NCBI GenBank assembly: GCA_030649345.1 | Contig: JAUSKK010000033.1 | Location: forward strand, 1 to 31,760 | DNA: 31,760 nt | From: Candidatus Iainarchaeum sp. | GTDB taxonomy: Archaea; Iainarchaeota; Iainarchaeia; Iainarchaeales; 0-14-0-20-34-12 | Direction of reading: 5' to 3' | Shown: one piece after another, positions 7,152-9,584 of the stretch | Numbering within the stretch: the first letter of the stretch is position 1 | Layout of the letters: each line of letters opens with the position of its first letter | The notes under the pieces: generated by a model | What the model was told of the DNA's origin: nothing | The model's input: the letters and a program-made list of their open reading frames with translations, nothing else | The model's database searches: none | Made by a program: the position numbers and the translations under genes

Positions 7152-9584
7152 ATGATTAAAATTAAAGAACTTCGTTTAAAAAATTTTAAATCCTTCAAAA
7201 AAGCAATCATTCCTTTTCGAGACGGAGTTACCACCATAGTAGGAGCCAATGGTTCAGGAAAAACCAATATTTTAGATTCACTTCTTTTTTCTTTAGGAAC
7301 AACCTCGCTTAAACTATTGCGGGCCAATCGCTTGACAGATTTAGTCAATATCAGTACCAACGAAAGCTATGCCAAAGTAGACTTAGTGCTCAAAGATAAT
7401 TCCAAGGAATGGATCATCACAAGATTAATTGACACCAAAGGAAAGTCAGTGTATCGATTAAACGAAGAACGAAAGTCCTTAAACGAAATCAATTCATTGC
7501 TCACAGAACTAGGCATTCAAAACGATGGACATAATATTGTAGCCCAAGGAGATGTCACAGCACTTATTGAAAAAAATCCAATTCAACGAAGAGAAATCAT
7601 TGATGACATTTCCGGCATTAAAGAATTTGATGAAAAAAAACAAGAAGCCGAAAAAGAATTGGGCAAAGTAGAAGAAAAAATTAGAGAAACCAGAATTGTC
7701 TTGGGAGAACGAAATTCCTACTTAACCAAACTCGAACAAGAACGAGCCGCAGCCTTACAATTTGAAACGCATACAACCCAAAAACGAACCCTGACAGCCA
7801 GTATTCTCAATATTGAAATGGATAAAATCAAAGAACTTGAAGAAGGATTGAGAAAAAAAATAATTGACTTTAATCAAAAAATACTTGAAAAAGACCAAAA
7901 AGAAAAAGAAATTGAAGCCAGTGAAGAAAAGATACGTTCAGACATTGAAGACATCAACAATCAATTACTTCACGAAAGTTCAGTTTTATACATGAACACG
8001 ATTTCCAAAATTGAAGAAAAAAAAACCAAACGCATTCTATTGGAGCAAGGAATTCAAAACGCCCAGCAAGTCATGAGAAAACATGCAGAAAAAATAAAAG
8101 AAATTCAAGGCAATGAAACAGAATTAATGAACGAAGTTCAAAAATCAGAAAATGAACACGCTCAATGGAAACAAAAACAAACCAGCTTACTCAAAGAACA
8201 CGGAAATCTACGAGAAGAAATTCAAGCCATCCTGGAAGAAATCAATACAGCCGTAAGCTTGGAAAAAGACGAAAAAGCCACAATCCAGCAGCTGGCCAAA
8301 GTAGTGCAAGAATTAGAACAAAATCATAAAGAATGCCCTATTTGCGAACGAGAACTAAGCCCAACTCAAATTGGACAATTGAAACAAAAACGACAAAAAG
8401 AAATCAAAGACCATCAAACCAGAATGACTGAATTAACCAATGCCGTTAATCAATTGGATTTAAAAAAACAAGAATTGGAAAAAATTATTCAAACAGAACA
8501 AGAAATCCAAACCAAAATACAGGTACTAGAAAGCAAAACCCAAGAATTGCGCAAAATATTGGAAAAAACAAATTATGGAAAAGAAATTTTGTTATTGGAA
8601 AAAGAAACCAAACATTTAGAAGAAGCCAATACATTCAAACTAAGTGAACTCGAAGCGTTAGAAAAAGAACAACAGCAGCTGGATCAAATATTGGAAAAAA
8701 ACAAAAAGGAAAATGAATCCAAGCAAATCAAAAAAAATACTTTGGCTGAAAAACTATATACTTTAAAGCAAAGCAAAGATGAACTGCGAAAAAAAATTGC
8801 GGAAATGCGAAAAGAAGAAAACCAGCTGGAAATCGAAAAAAGCAGGCACGAAGTACGCTGGGCTGACATGAGTGAAGAATTCAAAGAATTTACAGACGTC
8901 AAAACAATCAAGGGAGACATTAAAGAATTACGAAAAGAATTAAGCGAAGTAGAGAAAAAAATCCAGCAGTTGGGAAACATTAATTTAAAAGCCATTGAAT
9001 CTTTTGATGAACTCAAAAAAGAAGTAACTGAAATTACCGAAAAAGTCACCAAATTAGAAGAAGAACGAAAAGCAGTTGTAGACTTAATGCAAAAAATTGA
9101 AGACAAACGAAAAGAGGTATTCATGCAATGCTTTGAATCCATCCGCAAAAACTTCAATGACATGTTTTACAATTTCTTTAAAGGAAAAGGAGATCTTGAA
9201 TTAACCGACATGGAAGATTTACTGGAAGCAGGATTAATCATTAAAGCCCAGCATAAAGGAGACCAATTTCAAAGATTGGAAAGCATGAGCGGAGGCGAAA
9301 AAACATTGACTGCTCTAGCTTTCTTATTTGCCATCCAATTATACGAACCAGCTCCATTTTATGTATTCGATGAAGCCGATGCAGCCTTAGATAAAGAAAA
9401 TTCAGGAAAACTCATTCAAGTCATTAAAGAAATGGCCAAACATTCGCAATTCTTGATTATTACGCATAACGATGGACTAATTAAAAACGCTGACCAAATT
9501 GTAGGGGTAGCTTTAGATCAAAATAAATCCAGTGTCATTGGATTAAACTTAAAAGAAAGCGTAATGCAAAAATTAATAAAATAA
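7152..9584 (+). CDS. SMC-family ATPase with short coiled-coil arms and a central CxxC zinc-hook motif instead of a hinge
   Basis: The N-head reads [36 protein letters not shown], with Q-loop IVAQGDV and [18 protein letters not shown]. The C-head reads [36 protein letters not shown], with IITHN. The middle is E/K/Q coiled coil, with [12 protein letters not shown] at residues 395-398 (nt 8334-8345). Confidence 0.85.
   Translation: [810 protein letters not shown]

Follow-up and report, generated by a model that had tools for sequence, protein, structure and literature searches.

A probable SMC orthologue of Iainarchaeia (Diapherotrites) whose hinge has given way to a Rad50-type zinc hook

What is an archaeal protein that has the ATPase heads of an SMC, long coiled-coil arms, and a pair of cysteines where the hinge would be expected? 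The question is raised by an smc-type open reading frame (ORF) at positions 7152..9584 (plus strand) of a 31,760-nucleotide (nt) stretch of Candidatus Iainarchaeum sp. DNA (assembly GCA_030649345.1, contig JAUSKK010000033.1), hereafter the window. The ORF encodes 810 amino acids (aa) followed by a stop codon, and its exact NCBI entry (P0001), from a metagenome-assembled genome (MAG) of Candidatus Diapherotrites, is named "AAA family ATPase". An earlier note, made from the sequence alone, had described the product as SMC-type heads joined by a Rad50-type CxxC zinc hook instead of a hinge. The present analysis makes it probable that the protein represents, in Iainarchaeia (Diapherotrites), the orthologue of the SMC ATPase that organises archaeal chromosomes, and that a Rad50-type CPxC hook has taken the place of its hinge of ~150–200 aa. 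It is an SMC by descent, in terms of heads, arms, and locus, and not a canonical SMC by architecture.

The two halves of the ABC ATPase head, both encoded on the plus strand, lie at the ends of the protein. The N-terminal half (residues 1–168; 7152..7655) contains the Walker A motif GANGSGKT (7242–7265) and the Q-loop IVAQGDV (7536–7556), and the C-terminal half (residues 675–810; 9174..9581) contains the signature MSGGEK (9285–9302), the Walker B/D-loop (9357–9392), and the H-loop IITHN (9456–9470). All of the motifs quoted in the earlier note were found in the translation. In the family as a whole, G31, N33, G36, K37, Q132, and G133 of the N-terminal head and S713, G714, G715, E716, D740, E741, D743, L746, D747, H772, and N773 of the C-terminal head are invariant. 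The D-loop is of the SMC type (DEADAALD), whereas a genuine Rad50 has LDEPTVFLD.

The Pfam SMC_N profile covered residues 4–793 (2.9e-45). Among the NCBIfam models, TIGR02169 (SMC_prok_A) gave 515.5 bits and TIGR02168 gave 406.9 bits, as opposed to at most 122 bits for Rad50, 102.7 bits (2e-29) for the ASRP model NF045487, and 80 bits for arcadin-4. The SMC scores remained below the respective equivalog cut-offs of 729.4 and 567.35 bits because the hinge positions are missing, and it is because of this shortfall that NCBI assigns only the generic name. The Rad50 equivalog cut-offs, at 700–1087 bits, were not reached. As a hinge-bearing SMC of Micrarchaeota scored 123 bits on Rad50 and 102.1 bits on the ASRP model, the weak matches of the hook proteins to these models are generic to any SMC. 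In the PDB, the best sequence matches were the Smc heads of Pyrococcus (5xei, 1e-92; 5xns; 4i99), whereas Rad50 heads followed at ~1e-16. When the AlphaFold2 (AF2) model was searched with Foldseek, the top match was again 5xei (7e-33), a structure that comprises an Smc head, part of the coiled coil, and the joint; 4i99, an Smc head bound to ScpA, was matched with a TM-score (TM) of 0.87 and a root-mean-square deviation (rmsd) of 2.8 Å. The heads were 40–41% identical to those of archaeal SMCs, 36% identical to a bacterial SMC, and 25% identical to a genuine Rad50 (from a Methanohalobium locus, used as the outgroup), which was equidistant from all SMC groups in the head comparison. By profile scores, PDB matches, and identity alike, the heads are thus of the SMC type and do not fall within Rad50/SbcC.

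The apex of the protein is a different matter. The codons TGC CCT ATT TGC at 8334–8345, read directly from the DNA, encode Cys395-Pro-Ile-Cys398. The protein has only three cysteines, and the two that form this pair lie at 48.8% of its length, as the earlier note had placed them, in a 14-residue apex loop (residues 390–403; 8319..8360, plus strand). The Pfam SMC_hinge profile (PF06470) had no match in the 810-aa protein or in any of 39 sampled family members, and a local hinge hidden Markov model (HMM) built from reference SMCs had none in the 120 best relatives; as a positive control, all eight reference SMCs examined matched SMC_hinge, at 1e-25 to 1e-34. Instead, residues 375–420 matched the Rad50_zn_hook profile (E = 5.2e-5, 23.4 bits), which was also matched by 21 of the 39 sampled members (best E, 3.7e-7). 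Across the alignment of hook-bearing relatives, C395, P396, and C398 did not vary in any sequence (82 of 82), which makes them as strongly conserved as the catalytic residues, and by a rough estimate the chance of a CxxC falling within the apex loop is ~2e-4. A model of the apex fragment (residues 352–460), predicted with a predicted local distance difference test (pLDDT) score of 95.6, retrieved three Rad50 zinc hooks as its top matches in the whole PDB (chains A and B of 1L8D and the human 5GOX), superposing on 1L8D with a TM of 0.78–0.84 and an rmsd of 1.7–1.9 Å. By sequence, the top two PDB matches of the apex in phmmer were crystals of the Pyrococcus furiosus Rad50 hook (1L8D, E = 0.031; 6ZFF, 0.14), and the alignment was ungapped over 84 residues. 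Profile, sequence, and predicted fold therefore all bear out the resemblance of the mid-protein motif to the Rad50 hook.

Between heads and apex, the AF2 model of the full-length monomer (mean pLDDT, 81.9) showed long helical strands at residues 156–389 and 404–674, joined by the apex loop and without a globular domain there, in accordance with the long coiled coil that had been proposed. The ascending strand (residues 156–389; 7617..8318, plus strand) has a helix break at 351–352, and the descending strand (residues 404–674; 8361..9173, plus strand) has breaks at 473–474, 580–589, and 608–613. Head-proximal zones of low model confidence, at ~200–230 and ~570–610, are read as the SMC joint. 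The AT skew reached its maximum (+0.49) at window positions 8001–9000, which we attribute to the Lys/Glu-rich (AAA/GAA) codons of the coiled coil and not to a replication feature.

The arms tie the hook to the position of the hinge. Full-length family members are colinear with positions 2–485 and 688–1170 of the SMC model and skip the ~200 hinge positions. In Micrarchaeota SMCs the hinge starts at residue 488, and in the ~990-aa forms of the family the hook cysteines lie at 487–489. The colinear arms and the matching positions of hinge and hook indicate that the ancestral form was a canonical SMC except that a hook occupied the place of the hinge on the arms.

The architecture is not peculiar to one contig. 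The best 120 relatives were named Diapherotrites, "ainarchaeum", or unclassified archaeon, and were mostly 985–1010 aa in length; a single CP[VTI]C was located at 47–50% of the length in 112 of them, and PF06470 was listed for none. The conservation of the CxxC among orthologues, on which the proposal of a hook had depended, is borne out. An exhaustive search of 1.84 billion representative sequences yielded ~35 clusters (at 50% identity) that bear the hook and ~10 that lack both hook and hinge, beyond which the scores fell into SMCs of canonical length. Altogether, the architecture recurs in over 100 sequences obtained independently and deposited in NCBI, JGI, ENA, and Logan.

The hook-less sub-lineages are nested in the hook clade. 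Their proteins are 905–949 aa in length, the apex is a poorly conserved K/E-rich stretch, and the intact heads and the syntenic locus are retained (locus L087 in the case of P0044); they look like orthologues that have lost even the hook. The proteins with neither hook nor hinge are P0016, P0025, P0039, P0044, P0053, P0080, P0102, P0112, P0132, P0135, P0136, P0139, P0140, and P0145. In addition, two SMC-head proteins of 1076–1084 aa, P0174 (L090, 5311–8541; GCA_015657915.1) and P0192, lack both a Pfam hinge and a CxxC at mid-protein, contain 90–100 extra central residues, have a seryl-tRNA synthetase gene upstream, and fall within the inclusive clade described below.

A scan of a genome collection with the family alignment supplied reference SMCs and, among the 600 stretches listed, a single Iainarchaeum locus. 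In head-only neighbour-joining trees, the heads grouped among the SMCs and apart from Rad50, and the hinge-less proteins formed one clade with 98–100% bootstrap support. The exclusive monophyly of the hinge-less forms fell to 0% when P0142, P0174, and P0192 were added, and the inclusive clade then received 82%. P0142 (L089, 5188–8226) is a short-armed protein of 1012 aa that bears a hinge (SMC_hinge, 96 bits); its heads are 63–65% identical to those of hinge-less members, its hinge is closest to that of the P0146/P0147 clade, and its gene lies between those for L44e and a convergent Lon_C protein. Such a pattern would be expected if a relative near the base of the clade had kept the ancestral hinge by vertical descent, and P0142 is likely a pre-replacement form, although it is known from a single contig of 11.5 kilobases (kb) for which a chimeric assembly is possible. 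P0147, a canonical hinge-bearing SMC of 1171 aa, adjoins the L12-L10-L1-L11-Spt5-SecE-FtsZ cluster.

The same neighbourhood surrounds the hook gene. Typically, the L44e gene is followed by those for a membrane protein and the SMC, by a convergent Lon_C gene, and by L12-L10-L1-L11-Spt5-SecE-FtsZ. The genes in the window include L10P with an insertion domain, L1, L11, Spt5/NGN, FtsZ, and a GatE-type subunit, which mark the stretch as archaeal. The Lon_C-domain protein of the window (812 aa; 9603..12041, minus strand; Lon_C, 3.2e-12) is convergent with the SMC gene and serves as a context marker for positional orthology. It is convergently downstream in L001, L003, L004, L087, and L089, two genes further on in L088, and absent in L086; the downstream genes (Lon_C and L12-L10-L1) are kept in most of the hinge-less loci, not in L086. 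From the loci of P0142 and P0147, we read the hook protein as the smc orthologue of the lineage and not as a paralogue, and most likely the hook supplanted the hinge within that orthologous gene at its original locus, in one or more events.

The length of the arms has changed within the family as well. In 101 full-length members, the N-strand from head to hook was very tightly distributed, at 326–332 aa. Relative to this full-length class, the window protein has lost 92 aa from the N-strand and 89 aa from the C-strand, and the group of P0046–50 and P0052 has lost 94 and 90 aa, respectively. Larger losses were found in P0094 and P0117 (110 and 109 aa from the N-strand and 108 aa from the C-strand) and smaller ones in the forms of 945–946 aa (30 to 31 aa from the N-strand and 25 aa from the C-strand). 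The segments lost correspond to the hook-proximal half of both strands. As the window protein and the P0046 group are located in different parts of the tree, the nearly identical shortening was probably reached independently. Tolerated truncations of the Smc arms recur with a period of 91 aa, near the superhelical period of the coiled coil (~99 aa), and natural SMC arm lengths vary in steps of ~100 aa (PMC5344682); the shortening in the window protein fits one such step, or roughly one superhelical period. Apart from this family, the search of representatives also returned natural mini-SMCs that bear a hinge (P0225, P0230, P0238, P0240, and P0254; 810–838 aa, hinge at ~292–547), with N-strand arms ~160 aa below the canonical length.

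With regard to partners, the earlier note had found no mre11, herA/nurA, scpA, or scpB gene adjacent to the SMC gene. This held for the window, where Pfam scans of ORFs of at least 100 aa detected none of scpA, scpB, mre11, herA, and nurA, and a local ScpA profile had no match among all ORFs of at least 80 aa. Mre11/SbcD was likewise not found in the flanks of the relatives' loci. When a local ScpA HMM was applied to 4,692 ORFs, scpA was detected only beside canonical smc genes; it immediately followed smc in 16 reference loci and in none of the Iainarchaeia/Micrarchaeota loci. This result shows that linkage has been lost and does not mean that the genomes lack scpA. Near the heads, the coiled coil, which we take to be the kleisin-binding neck in SMC proteins, is rich in invariant residues in this family, and this would fit a conserved interface such as that neck.

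The gene directly upstream of the SMC gene, on the same strand (6240..7070, plus strand), encodes a polytopic membrane protein of 276 aa without a Pfam match. Homologues of ~254–280 aa occupy the same position in L001 (9177–9956), L003 (9190–9978), L004 (9169–9975), L086 (4169–4933), L087 (9176–9976), and L088 (6897–7739), and the relatives show only faint DUF7847 or weak GPDPase_memb matches. The membrane-protein/SMC pair was present in all eight distinct hinge-less loci (the window and seven others), including those of the basal short form and a cysteine-free form, and no homologue was found at 79 hinge-bearing smc loci or at the P0142 locus, L089. Judging from this gene order, the membrane protein is possibly linked to the SMC functionally. 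In the 81-nt spacer between the two genes (7071–7151), oligo-T tracts accompany an inverted repeat, CCTTTTCTTTT / AAAAGAAAAGG (7097–7122), which may act as a terminator and makes the co-transcription of the two genes uncertain.

In the AF2 model, each chain folds back on itself, from the head along an antiparallel coiled-coil arm to the apex loop. If the hook works as it does in Rad50, two chains would place their four cysteines (two from each) around one Zn2+. The resulting homodimer would be constitutive, with heads that engage and disengage with ATP, and it may act on chromosomal DNA in the manner of Smc–ScpA(B) condensin, presumably together with a kleisin whose gene lies at another place in the genome. 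Zinc-mediated dimerisation and a condensin-like function are likely, and the laboratory exchanges of hinge and hook described below make them plausible.

Several observations weigh against the interpretation of the protein as an SMC orthologue that dimerises through a zinc hook. The Pfam hook score of the 810-aa protein (23.4 bits) lies just under the gathering score of 24.3 bits, and the E-values of the apex for sequence and fold are modest (0.031 and 5e-3), because the apex is a short helical hairpin, although the ranking of the matches is very specific. Zinc binding and dimerisation through the hook are inferred, the models being of monomers only. The ~10 clusters inside the clade with neither hook nor hinge imply that zinc-mediated dimerisation at the apex is not indispensable in the lineage. 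The hinge-bearing P0142 stands among the basal branches of the clade, a position compatible with more than one number and order of hinge-to-hook events. The trees are neighbour-joining trees on 329 head columns, and the placement of Micrarchaeota as the sister group, supported by 93 of 100 replicates, was recovered in only 67 of 200 when the tree was rooted with Rad50, so that the sister group is unstable. Furthermore, the flanks of the smc gene in the hinge-less relatives, covered to 10 kb (6 kb in L006), contained no kleisin gene.

These observations bear on alternative explanations to differing degrees. It is conceivable, but unlikely, that the CPxC apex is no more than an ordered turn, or that it binds metal within one chain or in some other way, and that the chains meet via the arms or heads or form a monomer or a head-engaged dimer. 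Such an apex would be in keeping with the nested sub-lineages that lack both the cysteines and a hinge and keep intact heads at the same locus, and hinge-less SMCs free of CXXC do exist in marine bacteria (PMC12153180). A mere turn, however, would not account for the invariance of C, P, and C in 82 of 82 sequences at the level of catalytic residues, nor for flanks that match the Rad50 hook profile and a fold that superposes on 1L8D at 1.7–1.9 Å, and two cysteines per chain are insufficient for tetrahedral coordination within one chain. We think it quite improbable that the protein belongs to a new kleisin-independent SMC complex together with the upstream membrane protein, for example one that tethers or organises DNA at the membrane. 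That membrane-protein gene is directly upstream in eight of eight hinge-less loci and absent beside hinge-bearing smc genes, including that of P0142, and scpA follows smc in the 16 reference loci and in none of those from Iainarchaeia and Micrarchaeota; nevertheless, adjacency alone is no proof of interaction, and the repeat and oligo-T tracts in the spacer could split the transcripts. The invariant residues in the head-proximal coiled coil also speak against independence from a kleisin, as does the superposition of the head on the ScpA-bound head 4i99, and scpA could lie elsewhere in the genome. We give equally little credence to a form of this scenario in which a zinc-dimerised SMC without a canonical kleisin would act with the upstream membrane protein, and in which the loss of the hook in some sub-lineages would mean that its function does not need dimerisation at the apex.

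The other alternatives concern the identity of the protein itself. Its mid-protein zinc hook, its length of 810 aa within the Rad50 range, and its weak Rad50 matches (105–122 bits) might suggest the Rad50/SbcC-type double-strand-break repair ATPase of the organism, with heads that are merely SMC-like, but this is highly improbable given cut-offs of 700–1087 bits, the same background (123 bits) in a hinge-bearing SMC, head identities of 25% to Rad50 and 40–41% to SMCs, the equidistance of Rad50 from the SMC groups, the DEADAALD D-loop, the lack of mre11 in the window, and positional orthologues that are canonical SMCs. The earlier note had also left room for kinship with short archaeal SMC-related proteins (ASRP: ClsN/coalescin and Sph1/2), which are archaeal, SMC-like, and hook-bearing (PMC9389158) and whose model NF045487 was matched at 2e-29. 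This suggestion did not hold up: the score of 103 bits, compared with a cut-off of 300 bits, equals the SMC background (102 bits in the hinge-bearing SMC), arms and heads are colinear with the SMC models, and the ASRP model has 593 positions, compared with ~990 aa in the ancestral form, so we place hardly any weight on it. Finally, because the sequence comes from a MAG, a misassembly that deleted the hinge or a decaying pseudogene might be considered, as might a defence SMC such as Lamassu LmuB or Wadjet JetC in view of the PADLOC matches (mad3, 187.8 bits; LmuB, 79.5 bits). The probability of these is close to negligible: more than 100 independent sequences share the architecture, the catalytic and hook residues are invariant, the housekeeping locus is conserved, and the PADLOC scores are far under the SMC score of 515 bits.

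Among known systems, canonical archaeal Smc shares with the SMC orthologue with a hook the head sequence, motifs, and fold, colinear arms, and, in close relatives, the same neighbouring genes; the canonical protein, however, has a hinge and, in 16 reference loci, an adjacent scpA, whereas the window protein has a CPxC hook, arms that are ~90 aa shorter per strand, and no adjacent scpA. The same architecture has been constructed in the laboratory. In the engineered Smc(Zh)/Mini-Smc of Buermann et al. (2017), the hinge of Bacillus subtilis Smc was exchanged for the P. furiosus Rad50 hook, with normal growth and with the arm-length periodicity retained (PMC5344682), and the arm shortening of the window protein is near the tolerated period of 91 aa. 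Whereas Smc(Zh) is a laboratory construct with a borrowed hook, the Iainarchaeia form is natural, lineage-wide, and evolutionarily stable, has its own hook, and is known from sequence. In the reverse direction, a Rad50 fitted with the hinge of MukB works in fission yeast (PMC6969161).

With the Rad50/SbcC hook (PF04423; 1L8D, 5GOX, and 6ZFF), the family has in common a CPxC at the apex of an antiparallel coiled coil, and the P. furiosus flank, ELKKAKGKCPVCGRELT, is similar; however, Rad50/SbcC has Rad50-type heads, whereas the window protein has SMC-type heads and no Mre11 nearby. The hook may have originated either by transfer from a Rad50 or by convergence. The hinge-less oceanic SMCs form an Actinobacteria-affiliated marine clade in which CXXC is explicitly absent (Sussfeld et al. 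2025, PMC12153180); they too are natural, SMC-derived, and hinge-free, whereas the archaeal family has an invariant CPxC except in some sub-lineages. ASRP/ClsN are hook-bearing proteins of the SMC superfamily (PMC9389158), and ASRP (ClsN/coalescin, Sph1/Sph2; NF045487) are also archaeal, but they are separate and measure ~600 aa, compared with 810–1000 aa here. In the literature searched, Rad50/SbcC and ASRP/ClsN were the hook-bearing families of the SMC superfamily. In a survey of 512 archaeal SMC sequences, the word zinc is absent and the hinge appears only in the general introduction and the reference list (PMC8665677), and no report of a natural zinc-hook SMC was found in the full-text literature searched, which is absence of evidence only, as subscription journals lay outside its coverage.

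Some further features of the window and of related loci were noted. In the 812-aa Lon_C protein, the N-terminus is hydrophobic, and the proteolytic domain is followed by a long, Lys-rich coiled-coil tail at the C-terminus. Two genes of no clear family, at 12153–12899 (minus strand; 248 aa, basic) and 15110–15967 (plus strand; 285 aa, with a faint pPIWI_RE RNaseH match), interrupt the Lon_C/L12/L10/L1/L11 block, and the interval between Lon_C and L12 in L001 and L004 holds no comparable gene. A ribbon–helix–helix domain fused to a nucleotidyltransferase is encoded at 5281–6093 (plus strand) and a PIN-domain protein near the end of the window at 30784–31197 (minus strand); a tRNA scan detected no tRNA genes in the window. 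In L086, an intein with a LAGLIDADG domain splits a DHH/DHHA1 protein (9252–12254). The SMCs of L009, L010, L013, L025, and L029 (Gastranaerophilales, Obscuribacteraceae, and an uncultured bacterium) and those of L026 and L070 (Synechococcaceae and Prochlorococcus) grouped with the archaeal-type SMCs in the head trees. The former five, Melainabacteria-type loci have an archaeal-type scpA directly downstream of smc.

The hook SMC bears on the question of whether the hinge has a role in DNA loading or loop extrusion beyond that of holding the arms together. Judging from the laboratory chimera, it is "surprisingly uncritical" what kind of domain brings about dimerisation (PMC5344682). Evolution appears to have repeated this experiment in a whole archaeal lineage, in which the hinge was exchanged for a hook that has been kept under strong purifying selection, and variation followed later: at least two separate lineages shed about one superhelical period from their arms, and others lost the hook. 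The result is a natural series of proteins with closely related heads, comprising a hinge-bearing orthologue, full-arm and short-arm hook forms, and hook-less forms. With such a series, one could ask for which SMC functions a hinge, a closed apex, or a particular arm length is required.

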